Assembly: GCF_003018255.1 (NCBI RefSeq)
Contig: NZ_CP027440.1
DNA length: 64,000 nucleotides
DNA from: Escherichia coli
GTDB lineage: Bacteria > Pseudomonadota > Gammaproteobacteria > Enterobacterales > Enterobacteriaceae
Reading direction: 5' to 3' (one strand)
Shown: piece by piece, positions 2,429 to 47,419 of the stretch
Numbering within the stretch: the first letter of the stretch is position 1
Layout: each line of letters begins with the position of its first letter
The notes under the pieces: generated by a model
What the model was told of the DNA's origin: nothing
Seen by the model: the letters and a program-made list of their open reading frames with translations, nothing else
The model's database searches: none
Translations under genes and position numbers: made by a program

Positions 2429-4501
<2,073 letters not shown>

Positions 4502-5417: not shown

Positions 5418-6226
5418 TAGTTCATCCCCAACCAGTGGAGGATCTCCTGTCCGTGGCTATCGTAAAGTAATTTTGCACTCATCACCGCCGAGACGATAAC
5501 GATCATCGGGCGGATCAGCTTTTGTCCTTTGCTCAACACCAGTCTTGAACCCATGCGCGCGCCGAGGAACTGCCCCACCAGCATCACAAAGCCCGTCGCC
5601 CAAATCACTTTGCCGCCGAGAATAAACAGCAGCAGACCGCCAATGTTTGACGTTGCGTTGAGTAATTTGGCGTGAGCCGTGGCTTTGGCGAGGTTGAATC
5701 CGCACAGCGTAACGAAGGCCAGCGCGTAAAACGATCCGGCAGCTGGCCCAAAGAATCCATCGTAAAAACCGACGCAGCCCCCCGCCACCAGCGCAAATGG
5801 CAGTCCATACATCCGGCGCTGGCGATCTTCTTCACCCAGCTTTGGCATCAGCAAGAAATAGAGGCCGATACAAATCACCAGAATGGGCAGAATCTGCCGT
5901 AAGACATCAGCCTGAACATACTGCACCAGTAATGCGCCGCTCATTGAGCCGACAAAGGTCATGGCGATATTGAGTTTCTGATCGCTTAAACTAACCACTT
6001 TGCGGCGAATAAAGTAGATAGTGGCGGAAATAGAGCCGCCGCAGGCTTGCAGTTTATTGGTTGCCAGCGCGTTAGCCGGAGACATCCCCGCCGCCATCAA
6101 TGCCGGAATGGTGAGTAACCCACCGCCACCGGCAATCGAGTCGATAAATCCCGCCAGCATGGCGACAAAAAAGAGAACTCCCAGCAGCAGCGGGGAAACC
6201 ATAAACAGGCTATTAAACGTTTCCAT
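5417..6226 (-). CDS. yfcA: TauE/SafE-family inner membrane protein YfcA
   Basis: 269 aa hydrophobic ORF with Gly-rich TM segments; synteny. Confidence 0.88.
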   Translation of the reverse strand: METFNSLFMVSPLLLGVLFFVAMLAGFIDSIAGGGGLLTIPALMAAGMSPANALATNKLQACGGSISATIYFIRRKVVSLSDQKLNIAMTFVGSMSGALLVQYVQADVLRQILPILVICIGLYFLLMPKLGEEDRQRRMYGLPFALVAGGCVGFYDGFFGPAAGSFYALAFVTLCGFNLAKATAHAKLLNATSNIGGLLLFILGGKVIWATGFVMLVGQFLGARMGSRLVLSKGQKLIRPMIVIVSAVMSAKLLYDSHGQEILHWLGMN

Positions 6227-35642: not shown

Positions 35643-35660
35643 TTCTTACGCATGTAGGAT
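35643..35660. promoter_or_regulatory. 18-bp EvgA-box-like inverted repeat TTCTTACG-CA-TGTAGGAT in emrK-evgA divergent region
   Basis: Matches the TTCYTACA-NN-TGTARGAA pattern shared by three other sites in this window. Confidence 0.5.
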
Positions 35661-40099: not shown

Positions 40100-40135
40100 A
40101 GCGGCTCCCACAATGTTCAAATGTGGGAGCTATTT
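40100..40135. terminator. Bidirectional hairpin terminator between convergent evgS and yfdE
   Basis: Perfect 9-bp stem GCTCCCACA/TGTGGGAGC with 9-nt loop, T-rich downstream. Confidence 0.55.
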
Positions 40136-40152
40136 ACCAGCACATCTTACAT

Positions 40153-41298
40153 TTATGATGAGAACTCCTGGCGAATTTGTTCCCCATGCTGGTCGAGCGT
40201 TGCCGCTCCCGGCATAACATGCGGGTCCGCGCAGCCGCTGATTTTTATCGGATTCCCCGGCATCATTATTCCCCCGGCTTCAATCAACATATTTCTCGCC
40301 TGAGTTTGTGGCAAATTAATGGCCTCAGCCACACTTAATAACGGCGCGACGGGTACACCAACTTCATGTATTCTGGCTAACCAAACTTCAGCTGCCTGCG
40401 TTTTTAACGTCCGCTCAATATATTGTTTAAGAATAGCCTGGTTTTGTACGCGTAAAATATTGCTGCTAAATCTGGGATCATTAACCAGTTCCGTAAGCTC
40501 CAGTGCCTGGCATAACGCAGAAAAAAGCTTGTCATTACCACAACAAATCGTAATCGGCTTATCCTGAGTATCGAAAACATCAAAAGGTGCCATGTAGGGA
40601 TGGCGATTTCCCAGGCGTTGTGGTGACTTCCCTGTCGCAATATATGCCATCAGACCATGCTCCAGAAAACTCAGCGTGGCATCAAACATCGCTATATCGA
40701 CATGCGCCCCTCTTTGGCTCTTTTCGCGGCCATAAAGTGCACTCACTATTCCGCTGAATAAATAGACACCGCCGCATAGATCCGCAAGAGAGGTACCCAC
40801 GCGCACTGGCGGAGCATCAGGGTATCCTGTTTCCATCATTATCCCGCTCATTGCCTGAATGATGGTATCGTAGGCAGGAGCATCTTTTAGCGGACCGGTA
40901 TGTCCGAAACCTGACGATGAAGCATATATAAGGCGCGGGTTGATTTCTTGTAACCTTTCCCATGAAAACCCGAGTTTTTCCATTGTACCTGGGCGAAAAT
41001 TCTCAGCTAATACATCCGCTTGTTTAAGCATATTTATAAATATACTTTTATCGTGATCATTCTTTAAATCAAGAACCACACTCTCTTTGCCATGATTAAT
41101 AAAACTGTAATAGAGTGACTGTCCATCCACATAGGGACCAAATGTGCGGGTATCATCACCATGACCCGGCGGCTCAACTTTAATTACCCTTGCGCCCATA
41201 TTACAAAGAAGTTGAGTTCCGAAAGGCCCATTAAGGACATGCGTCATATCGATAACTAATAAGCCTTCAAACGGCCCTTTGCATTCATTATTTGTCAT
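40153..41298 (-). CDS. yfdE: Acetyl-CoA:oxalate CoA-transferase (family III CoA-transferase)
   Basis: ORF 40153-41337; start placed at MTNNECKGPF giving 381 aa. Confidence 0.9.
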   Translation of the reverse strand: MTNNECKGPFEGLLVIDMTHVLNGPFGTQLLCNMGARVIKVEPPGHGDDTRTFGPYVDGQSLYYSFINHGKESVVLDLKNDHDKSIFINMLKQADVLAENFRPGTMEKLGFSWERLQEINPRLIYASSSGFGHTGPLKDAPAYDTIIQAMSGIMMETGYPDAPPVRVGTSLADLCGGVYLFSGIVSALYGREKSQRGAHVDIAMFDATLSFLEHGLMAYIATGKSPQRLGNRHPYMAPFDVFDTQDKPITICCGNDKLFSALCQALELTELVNDPRFSSNILRVQNQAILKQYIERTLKTQAAEVWLARIHEVGVPVAPLLSVAEAINLPQTQARNMLIEAGGIMMPGNPIKISGCADPHVMPGAATLDQHGEQIRQEFSS

Positions 41299-41371
41299 TT
41301 GCTTATGCCTTGAAAAAAGCCGAAGGTGAAAAGACACTTCGGCATTTATGTAAAATCAATAACATGATTAA

Positions 41372-42316
41372 TTATGAAACCAGTCGACTGACATAAATCC
41401 ACAAAGGAGCCGTGACGACAAAACCCAGTACGCTCACAGCCAATGACGCTGTACCAGTGCGGGTGTAGACATTAAACCGGCTGGCAATAATGATTCCGGA
41501 GAATGCCGGCGGTAAGGCGCCTGCCAGTACCATCATCTGCAAATGTTCGCTGTTCAAATGACATGCCATACCAACGAGAAGCAGCGCCAGTGGCATCAGA
41601 ATCAGCTTCAGGAAGGTGTTATAAGCAATTTCGGCACTGAACTCGAATTTATGTGCAGCCAGAGTCAACCCCGCAGCGAATACCGCTACCCCTGAGTTAG
41701 CCTTCGCAATCAGATTAAAGGTTGGGTCCCATGCTGCCGGAATTTTTACCCCAACCAACACCAGGATCGTTGCCAGAACAGGTGCCCATACTACTGGCTC
41801 CTTTGCCGCAGAAATTAATGCGCTCAGATTACTATTCTTCTTACCATCCGCTCCTGAGGAAGGATTCAGCAAATACAGACCAATAGGAATAGTAATTGCA
41901 TTAACAATAATAGAAATAATTGCTACCACTAAACCTGTTGATACGGAATCACCATAAATAGGATCGAGAACTGCAAATCCCAGGAATCCAATGGTAGGTG
42001 AACCTGCAATTAATGCACATACTGCTGCTTCTGCATGAGTACGTTTAAAAAATTTGTAGCAACCGAACCAGGAGAAAAAGAAACATCCGACAATAACCAC
42101 AAGTGATACAAGGGTCAGACGAGTGTCCGCAAAAATCATTTCCCTGTTTGCCCGGGTAATAGATACAAATAGAGCTGCAGGAAGAGCGTAGTTTAATACC
42201 AGTTTATTAAATGCCCGGGCTTGATCTTCTGAAAAAGTTTCTCGTCTGCCGCTAAAATAACCCAACAGCATGATTACGATAATAGGCAATAAATCGCCAA
42301 TAAAAAATGTTAGCAT
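41372..42316 (-). CDS. yfdV: AEC-family membrane transporter YfdV
   Basis: 314 aa hydrophobic ORF; synteny in oxalate catabolic cluster. Confidence 0.9.
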
Positions 42317-42385
42317 AATAGTATTTCCGATAAGGGTCCCCTCACCATCGCATAATGAGTTGGCAAGAGGAGACGATGTCAGTAT

Positions 42386-44080
42386 TTAATTACCAGCGAC
42401 TTGTTTTGGGTTAAGTTTGGTAATATGGCCACTTTCAGTTCCTGCTGCAGGGTCGATGACCACATTAATAATGGTCGGTTTGCGCGACTGAATACCGGTG
42501 GTTAAAGCATGACGAAGTTCATCTGTCGTAGTGACGTTATAGCCAACGCCACGAAACGCATCCATTAATTTGTCATACCTTGCATGGTGCAGCAGATCCG
42601 TTGGTGATGGTGCACCAGCGCCGCTGAGATCAACACCGTCTCCTCTGTAGATGCCGCCATTATTAAAAATAACGATCGTCACCGGCAGGTTATATCGACA
42701 AATCGTTTCAATTTCCATCCCACTGAAACCAAAAGCACTATCACCTTCAATGGCAACAACCGGAGAACCAGAGGTCACGCTAGCACCGATGGCATAGCCC
42801 ATACCGATGCCCATGACACCCCAGGTGCCACAATCCAGACGACGACGTGGTTTATACATATCAATAATATTTCGTGCATTATCCAGGGTATTTGCCCCTT
42901 CATTAACTAAATAAATATCCTGGTTCTCGCGCAATACGTCGCGCACAGCACTTAATGCATTAAAGTAATTTAATGGTTGAGTATCTGTGCTTAACTTTTC
43001 ATGCATTTTTTGTGCATTTTGCTGCTTGTGGATATTTAAAATATCGCGCCATACCAGTGGAGTCGTAAATGTGTTTTGTTTCAGTTCTGCCAGCATACCT
43101 TGCATACTGGATGCAATATCGCCAACGACTGGCACAGCAATGGGGCGGTTGCTGTCAATTTCCTGCGGTTCAATATCCAGTTGAATAAACTGTGTATCTG
43201 CCGCCCATCCTTTTTTACCGTGTGCCAGTAACCAATTCAGTCGTGCACCAACAAGCATGACAACGTCAGCATTTGCCAGGGCAAACGAACGCGCAGCCGC
43301 CGCAGAAAGTGGATGCGTATCTTCGAGGATCCCTTTCGCCATAGACATTGGCAGGAATGGAATCTGGGCACTTTCAATAAATTCACGAAGCTGTTCATCC
43401 GCTTGTGAATACGCCGCGCCTTTGCCAAGGATAACTAATGGTCGTTCAGCTTTTGCTAATAGCGAAATTGCGCTAGCGACTGACTTCGGGCATGGCAATA
43501 ATGCTGGCGACGGATTTTCAACTTTTACAATCGTGGTTAACGCTTCGTCTTTTTCCATCGTCGCGGCCAGGACATTTGCTGGCAAATCAAGATAAACTCC
43601 GCCAGGGCGACCCGATACTGAGACCCGGATAGCGCGTGCCAATGCAATGCCAAGATCCTGCGGCTGATTAACGCGGAATGCTGCTTTGGCATACGGTTTT
43701 GCCGCATTCATTTGGTCCAGCTCTTCATAATCACCTTGCTGTAGGTCGACGATCGCGCGGTCGCTGGAGCCGCTAATCATGATCATCGGAAAACCATTTA
43801 CCGTTGCGTTGGCCAATGCGGTCAAACCATTGAGGAATCCTGGCGCAGAAACTGTCAGGCAGATCCCCGGTTTTTGGGTAAGAAAACCGCTTGCCGCAGC
43901 GGCATAGCCTGCCGACTGCTCATGACGAAAACCAATATAACGAATGCCTTCCGCCTGGGCATGGCGCGCCATATCCGTCACAGGAATACCTACAACACCA
44001 TAAATAGTGTCAATACCATTCTGTTTTAATGCTTCAACGATGATATGCATACCATCTGTCATTTGAAGTTGATCTGACAT
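42386..44080 (-). CDS. oxc: Oxalyl-CoA decarboxylase (ThDP-dependent)
   Basis: 564 aa ORF with ThDP-binding motif region. Confidence 0.95.
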   Translation of the reverse strand: MSDQLQMTDGMHIIVEALKQNGIDTIYGVVGIPVTDMARHAQAEGIRYIGFRHEQSAGYAAAASGFLTQKPGICLTVSAPGFLNGLTALANATVNGFPMIMISGSSDRAIVDLQQGDYEELDQMNAAKPYAKAAFRVNQPQDLGIALARAIRVSVSGRPGGVYLDLPANVLAATMEKDEALTTIVKVENPSPALLPCPKSVASAISLLAKAERPLVILGKGAAYSQADEQLREFIESAQIPFLPMSMAKGILEDTHPLSAAAARSFALANADVVMLVGARLNWLLAHGKKGWAADTQFIQLDIEPQEIDSNRPIAVPVVGDIASSMQGMLAELKQNTFTTPLVWRDILNIHKQQNAQKMHEKLSTDTQPLNYFNALSAVRDVLRENQDIYLVNEGANTLDNARNIIDMYKPRRRLDCGTWGVMGIGMGYAIGASVTSGSPVVAIEGDSAFGFSGMEIETICRYNLPVTIVIFNNGGIYRGDGVDLSGAGAPSPTDLLHHARYDKLMDAFRGVGYNVTTTDELRHALTTGIQSRKPTIINVVIDPAAGTESGHITKLNPKQVAGN

Positions 44081-44133
44081 GATTAATAACCTCGAAATTT
44101 TTATAAATTGGGAGCCAGAAGCCCCCGTTAATA

Positions 44134-45384
44134 TCAGATGGCGTGGTTTTGCTTCATTGCAGCAATTTCATCGTCGCTATAACCCAGCTCCTGCAATACA
44201 GCAGCGGTATGCTCACCTAATAGCGGCGCAGCTTTAATATCCGGCGTAAAGGCAGAGAATTTCATTGGACAACCAACGGTCAGATATTTTCCACGCAACG
44301 GTTGTTCCACTTCGACAACACTACCACTTTGGCGCAAAGAGGGATCAAGTGAAATTTCTTTCATACTTAAAACCGGTGCACAAGGAATATCAAACTGAGT
44401 CAAATAGGCCACCGCTTCATGTTTATCAATAGTGACAGTGTATTTTTCGATTTCAGCAAAAATATCGAAAATATGTGGCTGTCGGGCATGGGCTGTACTG
44501 TATGCCGGATCGGTAATCCATTCTGGTTTGCCGATGGCTTTACAGGTGTTTTCCCAGTTTTGCTCCTGAATAGTGAAATAAATATAGGCGTTAGGATCGG
44601 TTTCCCAGCCTTTACATTTCAGGATCCAGCCAGGCTGACCGCCACCACCCGCATTACCACCGCGGGGAACTGCATCACCAAATGTGCCATTCGGATACTG
44701 CGGGTATTCTTCCAGATACCCCAACTTATCGAGACGCTGCTGGTCGCGTAATTTCACGCGGCAAAGGTTCAACACGGCATCCTGCATTGACATGGTGACT
44801 CGTTGCCCACGCCCCGTTTTTTCGCGATGCAGCAAAGCAGCAAGTAAACCGATCAGCAAATGCATTCCGGTGTTGCTGTCACCCAACGCTGCAGCGCTTA
44901 CCAGCGGCGGACCGTCCCAAAAACCTGTAGTAGATGCCGCGCCACCCGCTGCCTGAGCAACGTTTTCATAGGCTTTTACATTCACATAAGGCGAACACTC
45001 ATCAAACCCTTTGATCGAACCAAAAATCAGACGTGGATTGATTTCTTGAATATGCTCCCAGGTGAAGCCCATATGATCAATGGCCCCTGGATGAAAGTTC
45101 TCGACTAAGATATCAGCTTCGCGGATCAGCTTTTCCATTACCTCTTTGCCTTCCGCTGTTTTGGTATTTAATTCAATAGAACGTTTGTTACTGTTAAGCA
45201 TGGTGAAGTAAAGCGCATCGATATCAGGAATATCTCGCAGCTGGTGGCGCGTTACGTCACCAACGCCGGGACGTTCAATTTTAATGACGTCAGCGCCAAA
45301 CCAGGCCAGCATCTGAGTACAAGATGGGCCAGATTGCACACCAGTGAAATCGAGAACTTTAATTCCTTGAAGTGGAGTTGACAT
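44134..45384 (-). CDS. frc: Formyl-CoA:oxalate CoA-transferase
   Basis: 416 aa ORF, family III CoA-transferase, recognised sequence. Confidence 0.95.
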
Positions 45385-45636
45385 AGCAATACCTATTAGT
45401 TAATTAAATATATGTTAATTTAGCGTTTATTTAAGGCATAATGCTCTCTATAAATAATCCGCAAAATATCGTCGTAGCTGCACTCGATATTTTTAAATTC
45501 CTGTATCAAGTGCTGATAATCATTTCATCGCCACTTCCAATTCCTTTCTGCATGGTAAGTAGTGAGGACGAAAAGAAGAATATGATAAATATTGGTTCGC
45601 GGTAATCAGAGAGGGCCGCGACATTTGTGATGTTAT

Positions 45637-45654
45637 TCTTACAACTGTAAGAAG
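45637..45654. promoter_or_regulatory. 18-bp EvgA-box-like inverted repeat TTCTTACA-AC-TGTAAGAA upstream of frc
   Basis: Near-perfect palindrome about 250 bp upstream of frc start; best match to the shared pattern. Confidence 0.55.
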
Positions 45655-45804
45655 CGCCGGTGATGTACAAGTAAGGGTATGATTACGCTTTTTAAAGCGT
45701 ACCATAAAACATAACATAATAAATGATTTATGATGACACGGGATTATTGCGGTTTACTTTGAAGAATATAAAATGCGAGTTTATAGCACCGCGAGCGCCA
45801 AATA

Positions 45805-45846
45805 ATTTTATGGCCACAACCTGTCGTATTGTGGCCATAAAAAATT
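45805..45846 (-). terminator. Hairpin terminator downstream of yfdX
   Basis: Perfect 10-bp stem ATGGCCACAA/TTGTGGCCAT with 9-nt loop, flanked by T-run and A-run. Confidence 0.55.
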
Positions 45847-45896
45847 GTCGGCTGGAGGGAGTAAAATCCTTTACCTCAATATATTGCCTGTCAGCT

Positions 45897-46529
45897 TTAG
45901 TTCACAAACAGTGCTTCGCTATCGACGATGATTCCATCTTCCGCACCTTTAAGCGCCAGGTTTGCCTCGTAGTATTGCTTTTTATCAAGCAGTTTCTGCG
46001 CATCAGCAAGTGCATTACGAGTCTGTTTGAGCGGCATCAGATATTGGTTTTCCATTACACCAACACCGGCCAGGCGAAGCTCTTCCATTGCGCCCTTTTT
46101 ATCCCCTTTCGCCATTTTTTCGTTGGCAATTTTTATCGCGGCTTCTTTTTCGGGTGTCGCTACATAACTCTCAGAAATTCCGACAGATGCATTAATGACA
46201 ATATATTGGTCATCATTGAGATTGGTCTTTTTACCTGGCTTAGCGAACTTTGCCCATTCGGTACTGTCATCTGACAACAAAGCTGAAGCTTCATTGGTCA
46301 GTTCTTTTGCCTTTTCCGGATCGCCATGAAACAGAGCCAGGCGCGCTACCTGCACGTCACGCATCGCATATAAACCTTGTTCAGAGATACGCTCTGCTGC
46401 TGCCGTTTTCTGGGTTTGCTGAACTTGCTGAGTTTGCTGTTGTGCCGCTACCGGTGCATTATCAGCAGCCCATACAGTTGAAGATGCCAGAATTGCTGTG
46501 ACCATCGTAGCCATAATTAAACGTTTCAT
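45897..46529 (-). CDS. yfdX: Periplasmic protein YfdX (EvgA-regulated)
   Basis: 210 aa ORF with signal peptide, recognised sequence. Confidence 0.9.
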
Positions 46530-46626
46530 ACTTACCTCATTCTTTAACAGTTTTAGAAAACGCCGCCATCATATTGGGTGAGCATGAAATGAGAAATCAG
46601 AGAGCAACGGTCATTTTGAAAGGGTT

Positions 46627-46644
46627 ATCTTACAGTTGTAGTTA
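46627..46644. promoter_or_regulatory. EvgA-box-like inverted repeat ATCTTACA-GT-TGTAGTTA upstream of yfdX
   Basis: Matches shared pattern; about 100 bp upstream of yfdX start. Confidence 0.45.
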
Positions 46645-46664
46645 TTATCGCAAGAAGTATTTTA

Positions 46665-46682
46665 GTCTTACAATTGTAGGAA
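46665..46682. promoter_or_regulatory. EvgA-box-like inverted repeat GTCTTACA-AT-TGTAGGAA upstream of yfdX
   Basis: Matches shared pattern; second site 38 bp from the first. Confidence 0.5.
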
Positions 46683-46824
46683 TATGCTTCCTGTCACAGA
46701 GAACTATTCTTATATACCACAAAGAGATGTCATTTATTATATCGATGTAAATACTGATTAATTAAATGTAAATACAGCCATAACATCGTAGGTTCTCAGT
46801 GAACCATTTTCAGGATAACTTTCT

Positions 46825-47100
46825 ATGAAAGTAAACTTAATGATTTTTAGCTTATTTTTATTGGTCTCTATTATGGCATGCAATGTTTTTGCATTTTCCA
46901 TTTCTGGTGGTAGAAGTGAGACGAGCTATAAAGAGACAGAAAAAACGTCAGTGATGACGACAACTCATTCTACAAAACTTCAGCCATCACAGGCGATTTT
47001 GTTTAAGTTGAGAGAAGATGCGCCACCATTAAATCTCACAGAAGACATTACGCCCCCTTTTTCGACAAAGGCGAATTATCTTATTCATCCTGTGCGATAG
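46825..47100 (+). CDS. ypdI: Small lipoprotein YpdI
   Basis: 91 aa ORF with signal peptide and Cys lipobox-like motif (IMAC). Confidence 0.8.
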   Translation: MKVNLMIFSLFLLVSIMACNVFAFSISGGRSETSYKETEKTSVMTTTHSTKLQPSQAILFKLREDAPPLNLTEDITPPFSTKANYLIHPVR

Positions 47101-47176
47101 CGTCTGTCACCTGGCAGGTGAACAATCATGCCTGATGCTGATGTGAACACCTGCCCAAATGAACCATCCTGACCCA

Positions 47177-47419
47177 CTAGCGCCTGCCATACCCCACCAT
47201 AAAGCGAATCATCAAGCCACAAGCCGGGGCAAGAAACATAAATATCCCCGTCACTAGTTCATTACCGCCAGTTAACCACATGGTGAAGTAGTAAATGAGT
47301 GCAGCGAGGATCACCATGCCGAAGAAAGAAGAGACCGCCGAGACCACGTTCAGTACCTGACCGATGTATCCGCTTACGCAGACAATACACAGGGCGAGAA
47401 ACATCCATAAATAAATCAT
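47177..47419 (-). CDS. yfdY: Small inner membrane protein YfdY
   Basis: 80 aa ORF, two predicted TM helices. Confidence 0.8.
   Translation of the reverse strand: MIYLWMFLALCIVCVSGYIGQVLNVVSAVSSFFGMVILAALIYYFTMWLTGGNELVTGIFMFLAPACGLMIRFMVGYGRR

Follow-up and report, generated by a model that had tools for sequence, protein, structure and literature searches.

Known and conserved EvgA sites upstream of two adjacent putative transcription units, yfdX and frc-oxc-yfdV-yfdE, in Escherichia coli

Three 18-bp inverted repeats that precede yfdX and the oxalate genes frc-oxc-yfdV-yfdE in Escherichia coli are known, strongly conserved EvgA sites, and we consider it very probable that these genes form two adjacent transcription units, each activated by EvgA at its own operators. 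The arrangement is already in print; because EvgA sites have been published before the same genes, what we describe is a rediscovery of known sites. The sites, their conservation, a hairpin that follows yfdX and a compensatory change in its stem come from our own analysis of a 64,000-nucleotide stretch of E. coli DNA (hereafter the window) and its relatives, and for EvgA binding and induction we draw on the literature.

The relevant intergenic regions lie in a 1440-bp interval that is matched in 5413 of 5426 complete E. coli genomes, with 100% identity in strain JNE23-011 and ∼97.5% identity in K-12. RefSeq, in both the identical strain and K-12, gives the gene names used here and the order emrY-emrK (minus strand), evgA-evgS (plus), yfdE-yfdV-oxc-frc (minus), yfdX (minus) and ypdI (plus). 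The genes that matter here, as annotated in RefSeq, and the cluster that four of them form are as follows.

40153-41298, minus strand: yfdE
41372-42316, minus strand: yfdV
42386-44080, minus strand: oxc
44134-45384, minus strand: frc (also called yfdW)
40153-45384, minus strand: frc-oxc-yfdV-yfdE cluster, with intergenic gaps of 53-73 bp
45897-46529, minus strand: yfdX, 210 aa
46825-47100, plus strand: ypdI

We defined an EvgA box as an 18-bp inverted repeat of the form TTCYTACA-N2-TGTARGAA, i.e. with 8-2-8 geometry, and scanned the window for it. With up to 3 mismatches allowed, there are 4 matches in the 64 kb where 0.63 would be expected, and none of 100 shuffled sequences yielded 4. One match is a classical EvgA target in the divergent emrK/evgA region, which serves as a reference site.

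35643-35660: EvgA box of the emrK/evgA divergent region (pattern scan)
45636-45653: frc EvgA box, TTCTTACAACTGTAAGAA, i.e. TTCTTACA-AC-TGTAAGAA, 0 mismatches to TTCYTACANNTGTARGAA
46627-46644: yfdX proximal, weaker EvgA box, ATCTTACAGTTGTAGTTA, 3 mismatches to TTCYTACANNTGTARGAA
46665-46682: yfdX distal, stronger EvgA box, GTCTTACAATTGTAGGAA, 1 mismatch to TTCYTACANNTGTARGAA

All three repeats named in a preliminary description of this DNA are therefore present, with 0, 1 and 3 mismatches to the inverted-repeat pattern, the only correction being that the frc site had been placed at 45637-45654, 1 bp away from its true position. The palindrome claimed for frc holds up fully: its arms match at 8 of 8 positions on either side of the 2-bp spacer AC. 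The two yfdX boxes are 38 bp apart, centre to centre, and the heptamer TGTAAGA occurs seven times in the window, four of them within the three boxes.

How tightly are these boxes held among strains? Both intergenic regions were aligned from 11 E. coli, including the markedly divergent L003; this footprinting is confined to E. coli diversity because a scan of a genome collection gave, among the matches listed, a single Escherichia representative along with Moellerella and Providencia that lack the box. Throughout the 11 strains, the half-sites are constrained, with invariant cores, and the central 2 bp are free: the frc box varies only in its spacer (GT to GC), the distal yfdX box likewise (AT or AC), and the proximal yfdX box retains the cores CTACA and TGTAAGA around a spacer of AC or GT. 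Variable positions make up 6%, 22% and 6% of the three boxes and are located at spacers and edges, whereas 24-40% of the flanking DNA is variable; for example, the figure is 40% for the 20-nt linker separating the yfdX boxes and 34% for the 89 nt upstream of the frc box, and the 19 nt downstream of the latter are invariant. Of the 5426 complete genomes, 5403 have the 44-nt segment with the frc box, at an identity of at least 99% in 5121 records. Invariant half-site cores combined with free spacers are the pattern expected of operators that bind dimers. By this conservation, the boxes are under purifying selection across the E. coli population, and the same pattern validates the weak proximal yfdX box. 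The close frc relatives of Moellerella and Providencia, at 87% and 86% identity respectively, have no EvgA box within 4 kb, among the matches listed; in the few genomes so compared, the oxalate genes look to have come under EvgA control specifically in Escherichia.

The 18-bp motif was reportedly discovered by Masuda & Church (2002), EvgA footprints are said to have been reported by Itou et al. (2009), and the K-12 EvgA regulon with 18-bp inverted repeats comprises emrK/evgA, ydeP, safA, yfdX, frc/yfdW, yegR and gadE. The sites described here are orthologous to those of the K-12 regulon, with the same sequences (the frc box and both yfdX boxes are identical in K-12 MG1655), the same genes downstream and the same 8-2-8 geometry. 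There is no substantive difference from K-12, only a surrounding divergence of ∼2.5% and a G-C variant of one pair in the stem of the putative terminator. Published work agrees with the proposal that yfdX and frc-oxc-yfdV-yfdE are under separate EvgA control: a figure legend places EvgA-binding inverted repeats before 'yfdX and yfdWUVE' (PMC3720670, Fig. 2 legend, citing Masuda & Church 2003), a list of EvgA-bound promoter regions includes those of both yfdX and frc (PMC8147483), and a PyfdX-yfp reporter, described as "directly activated by phosphorylated EvgA", is induced up to 60-fold at pH 5.7 (PMC5706723). Additionally, EvgA sites have been found only at already known direct targets, frc among them (PMC4283999).

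A boundary between the two units is suggested by a hairpin that follows yfdX, and a further hairpin lies beyond the far end of the oxalate genes.

45798-45842, minus strand: intrinsic-terminator-like hairpin plus tail (stem-loop 45842-45806), 55 nt past the yfdX stop
40104-40130: strong hairpin in the convergent evgS/yfdE gap, -26.2 kcal/mol, z -4.3

A strong hairpin terminator had been noticed at 45805-45846; the hairpin is real and the span slightly too wide. It has a stem of 15 bp and a loop of 7 nt, followed by the tail UUAUUUGG, with a folding energy of -27.5 kcal/mol (z = -5.4 against shuffles). Like canonical Rho-independent terminators, it is a stable, GC-containing stem-loop just past the stop codon on the sense strand, with a U-rich tail behind it that has 5 U in 8 and passes the scan rule; unlike them, it has an interrupted U-tract and needs an A/U extension to bring the stem to 15 bp. 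Because the tract is interrupted, termination may be partial. The stem is 100% paired in every aligned row, even though one pair differs among strains: it reads ATGGCC...GGCCAT in this strain and one other and ATGACC...GGTCAT in the remaining strains, a G-C to A-U compensatory pair that, given the little divergence available, provides modest but consistent evidence that pairing may be maintained. No other strong terminator-like hairpin occurs inside the cluster, and the 53-73 bp gaps from frc to yfdE contain no strong or comparable one; the hairpin in the evgS/yfdE gap is likely to end the frc-yfdE unit. The sequence thus supports two units, and the suggestion that yfdX is monocistronic draws support from the stability of the stem, the compensatory pair and the hairpin-free gaps between frc and yfdE. 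K-12 Term-seq tables list no 3′ end in the frc-yfdX gap, in uninduced cells in which yfdX is barely expressed (PMC7815308), and the supplementary tables of an acid ribosome-profiling study have no entry for this gap.

The distance from the frc ATG (45384) to the yfdX stop (45897) leaves a gap of exactly 512 bp, as the preliminary description had it, but the gap is not unexplained, as was also said; although neither K-12 nor the identical strain has a feature annotated in it, it splits into recognisable parts. In the direction of transcription, these are a 54-nt untranslated tail, the hairpin (45842-45806), a spacer of ∼150 bp that is AT-rich and poorly conserved, the box (45653-45636), a conserved segment of ∼60 bp with weak promoter-like hexamers and then what would be a leader of ∼190 nt. 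Elements within the spacer and the leader are listed below.

45743-45772, minus strand: sigma-70 promoter-like TTTATA-18-AATAAT found by scan, upstream of the frc EvgA box
45385-45575, minus strand: inferred frc 5′ leader, ∼190 nt, with GGA motifs
45553-45506, minus strand: candidate leader ORF of 15 codons (ORF reading)

Among the 11 strains, the AATAAT hexamer of the promoter-like sequence in the spacer is invariant and TTTATA is polymorphic. A SELEX study recovered a peak of sigma-70 holoenzyme, without activator, in the frc/yfdX spacer, assigned TTTATA-18-AATAAT to it and flagged H-NS (Shimada 2014, PMC3946193). The leader is conserved over its first 60 nt (10% variable), and a 10-bp hairpin at 45513-45480, GCACUUGAUA/UAUCGAGUGC, keeps its pairing through four wobble-type changes. 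The overall fold of the leader is not significant (z -1.1), and a search of 45000-47200 against the Rfam covariance models (E up to 1) gave no match to a known riboswitch, leader or sRNA. A coding explanation for the gap was rejected: apart from the 15-codon leader ORF, there are only short overlapping ORFs that lack a Shine-Dalgarno sequence, none of them annotated.

Where would transcription begin? Downstream of the boxes we can point to one candidate core promoter for each unit.

45579-45613, minus strand: predicted EvgA-dependent frc core promoter, inferred start ∼45570-45577
46568-46604, minus strand: predicted yfdX core promoter, inferred start ∼46561

At frc, the 10-mer CTCTCTGATT (45613-45604) contains a -35-like CTGATT (45609-45604), and the candidates for the -10 element, TATCAT (45587-45582) and CATATT (45584-45579), overlap; this predicted promoter is not among the 9-of-12 matches of the promoter scan. 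At yfdX, CTCTCTGATT (46604-46595) is followed by TTCTCA-16-TATGAT (46595-46568), which the scan does find, and the core promoter region is almost invariant among strains. Both predicted promoters match the consensus weakly. Relative to the predicted starts, the frc box is centred at about -70 to -73 and the yfdX boxes at about -75 (proximal) and -113 (distal). The distance from box to -10 element is similar at yfdX, frc, K-12 safA and K-12 ydeP, as read by eye from -10-like hexamers. This similar spacing, together with the conserved segment from box to -10, fits position-dependent activation, and the position of the box would fit an upstream, class I-like activator.

The window contains CTCTCTGATT as an exact 10-mer just twice, in both cases at an offset of exactly 22 nt downstream from a box (the frc box and the proximal yfdX box). 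None of the safA, ydeP and emrK promoters has it. We rejected the idea that the promoter modules of frc and yfdX are homologous, as a local alignment of the two was not significant (149 of 2000 shuffles scored as high); we thus regard the shared 10-mer as a post hoc curiosity. The K-12 safA and ydeP promoters, for their part, are clearly homologous for ∼60 nt downstream of their boxes (0 of 2000 shuffles).

These elements can be assembled into a model in which we infer the exact starts, the geometry of activation and how efficiently transcripts terminate. When the pH is mildly acidic, EvgS would phosphorylate EvgA, and a dimer of EvgA would bind each 18-bp inverted repeat. At yfdX, the strong distal site and the weaker proximal site, the latter with its centre ∼75 bp ahead of the inferred start, would jointly activate a weak sigma-70 promoter, and the resulting transcript would end mostly at the stable hairpin 55 nt beyond the stop codon. 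Some 150 bp past that hairpin, the single perfect frc site would drive frc-oxc-yfdV-yfdE by way of a second weak promoter, from a position centred ∼70-73 bp upstream of it; this second transcript would carry a leader of ∼190 nt and would stop at the evgS/yfdE hairpin. One published observation sits uneasily with this model, namely that the promoter assigned by Shimada lies upstream of the frc box and not downstream (PMC3946193).

Is one operon sufficient to explain the locus? The name 'yfdXWUVE operon' is in use (PMC3720670, PMC6128205), and the genes respond to acid almost in unison, with log2 inductions of 4.9 for yfdX, 4.8 for frc, 4.3 for oxc and 4.4 for yfdV by ribosome profiling and RNA-seq (PMC10746267). 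A single yfdX-frc-oxc-yfdV-yfdE operon, transcribed mainly from the yfdX promoter, would be in keeping with both observations, and with the imperfect U-tract of the hairpin as well; the hairpin would then be a leaky terminator or an element that stabilises or processes the RNA, and the frc box would boost or fine-tune expression. We nevertheless think a single operon unlikely, given a frc box that is perfect and essentially invariant, a conserved promoter-like segment just downstream of it, sigma-70 holoenzyme binding in the spacer (PMC3946193), a very stable stem kept by compensatory change, and literature that has EvgA at both promoter regions (PMC3720670, Fig. 2 legend; PMC8147483). RcsB and EvgA half-sites have TAAGA-like cores in common. 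RcsB also binds the yfdX promoter of Klebsiella pneumoniae (PMC6394985), but we find it highly improbable that the repeats are sites of RcsB or another NarL/FixJ-type regulator, or chance palindromes: they share geometry and sequence with the EvgA sites of emrK, safA and ydeP, the RcsB motif KMRGAWTMWYCTGS, with 1 mismatch allowed, has 7 matches in the window of which none is in 45385-45896 or 46530-46824, and chance is excluded by the shuffles and by conservation.

How EvgA would activate these promoters is a separate matter. At these horizontally acquired, AT-rich regions, EvgA may act mainly by displacing H-NS (counter-silencing) and not as a recruiter of RNA polymerase bound at a fixed upstream position, which would account for the long AT-rich gap and for the sigma-70 site upstream of the box. 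The GC content of both intergenic regions is low (28-41%), H-NS is flagged at a spacer that holoenzyme can bind without activator (PMC3946193), a Rho termination region lies within yfdX in uninduced K-12 (PMC7815308), as is typical of silenced DNA, and the frc relatives of Moellerella and Providencia do without an upstream box, among the matches listed. As the main mechanism, counter-silencing strikes us as somewhat unlikely in view of the similar distance between box and promoter at four EvgA promoters and the tight conservation from box to -10. The low GC, the H-NS flag and the Rho region make it plausible as an additional mechanism, and counter-silencing and position-dependent activation are mutually compatible.

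The closest characterised homologue of EvgA is BvgA of Bordetella, a member of the NarL/FixJ family. BvgA promoters have inverted repeats well upstream of a weak sigma-70 promoter and combine strong distal with weaker proximal sites, and BvgA dimers are aligned ∼22 bp apart down to the -35 element. A strong distal site paired with a weaker promoter-proximal one is also seen at yfdX; the half-site sequence is different, a distance of 38 bp separates the two yfdX boxes and there is no visible third site abutting the -35 element. The yfdX gene of K. pneumoniae belongs to the same family, is acid-induced, is under NarL/FixJ-type control and is located beside kvhAS, the homologue of evgAS, but it has the RcsB motif KMRGAWTMWYCTGS, absent here, and its neighbours are hdeDB and not frc-oxc (PMC6394985).

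The yfdX boxes also vary in number. Most E. coli have 2 copies of a 38-bp unit that includes the yfdX box, and there is a natural copy-number polymorphism of 2, 3 or 4; for example, JL05 has three yfdX boxes and IBS28 has four. The three-box allele is present in roughly 340-425 of ∼5090 genomes, or roughly 7-8%, as gauged from an evenly spaced listing. In ETEC6, an insertion of ∼260 bp with an IS5-family fragment separates the two boxes. It is possible, and we offer it as speculation, that box copy number tunes the gain of the EvgA response by lineage and that CTCTCTGATT is a second, promoter-class-specific element. The copy-number polymorphism is minor and may be the only new part of this work; it is somewhat relevant to users of PyfdX reporters and to comparisons of acid responses between strains.

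For the EvgA regulon as a whole, the present analysis adds nothing beyond the published K-12 picture; it does show that a reader with the sequence alone can recover the true architecture of a regulon. Its practical value is modest: in this strain, the operators now have precise coordinates, as do the probable terminator of yfdX and the likely promoter and ∼190-nt leader of frc. For the biology of E. coli, selection on all three boxes extends to strains of the B2 lineage, whose EvgS is reportedly no longer acid-responsive (PMC5706723).

Downstream of their EvgA boxes, the frc and yfdX promoters share an exact 10-mer, CTCTCTGATT, which occurs just twice in the 64 kb, each copy exactly 22 nt downstream of a box (the frc box in one case and the proximal yfdX box in the other), and which is kept in K-12. 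This element and the other features of interest are located as follows, in window coordinates unless another locus is named.

45604-45613 and 46595-46604, minus strand: exact 10-mer CTCTCTGATT
L083 (K-12 comparison locus) 2990-3071 and 5650-5730, minus strand: module of ~60 nt common to safA and ydeP, downstream of their EvgA boxes
45480-45573, minus strand: inferred frc leader features
45553-45506, minus strand: 15-codon open reading frame in the inferred frc leader, MQKGIGSGDEMIIST
45513-45480, minus strand: 10-bp hairpin in the inferred frc leader
45684-45701: 8-2-8 palindrome TACGCTTT-TT-AAAGCGTA
46627-46682, with L088:1443-1536 (JL05) and L093:419-550 (IBS28): EvgA-box unit upstream of yfdX
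K-12 coordinate 2494302, roughly window 46430, minus strand: Rho-dependent termination region (Adams et al. 2021)
40104-40130: strong hairpin in the 55-bp convergent evgS-yfdE gap (-26.2 kcal/mol, z -4.3)

The 10-mer may belong to the -35 region or form an additional element; the safA, ydeP and emrK promoters lack it, and a general alignment of the frc and yfdX promoters was not significant. For safA and ydeP, none of 2000 shuffles scored as high as the ungapped alignment of the common promoter module, and this suggests a promoter duplication inside the EvgA regulon. The TACGCTTT-TT-AAAGCGTA palindrome, whose centre is 48 bp from that of the frc EvgA box on the upstream side, is identical to the box in geometry but unrelated to it in sequence. 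Its conservation is only partial: the divergent strain among those compared carries a double change from G-C to A-T.

The inferred frc leader might conceivably be under post-transcriptional control, for instance by CsrA. The initial 60 nt are well conserved and contain two GGA motifs (AAGGAAUUGGAAG) as well as the 15-codon reading frame, which has no obvious Shine-Dalgarno sequence, and pairing in the hairpin survives substitutions via wobble. At the far end of the cluster, the evgS-yfdE hairpin is predicted to be a bidirectional terminator, probably ending both units.

Upstream of yfdX, the copy number of the 38-bp EvgA-box unit differs between E. coli strains: most have two boxes, JL05 and several hundred further genomes (roughly 7-8% of complete E. 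coli genomes) have three, and IBS28 has four. In ETEC6, the two yfdX boxes are separated by a ~260-bp insertion (L094:440-700) that contains an IS5/IS1182 transposase fragment and displaces the strong distal box to ~300 bp from the proximal one. Within yfdX itself, ~100 nt into the gene, a supplementary table places the Rho-dependent termination region in uninduced K-12 (Adams et al. 2021), as would fit a yfdX promoter region that is silenced and whose transcripts are poorly translated.

EvgS of phylogroup B2 has been reported to be unresponsive to acid (PMC5706723), and yet the B2 strain EC958 keeps all three boxes intact (compare window 45636-45653 and 46627-46682); the EvgA operators are thus still under selection even in this strain. 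Among the matches listed, the nearest frc orthologues besides one Escherichia genome belong to Morganellaceae (86-87% identity) and not to other Enterobacteriaceae. Taken together with the absence of EvgA boxes from the frc loci of Moellerella wisconsensis and Providencia stuartii, these relationships suggest that the oxalate genes were acquired horizontally and then captured by EvgA in Escherichia.
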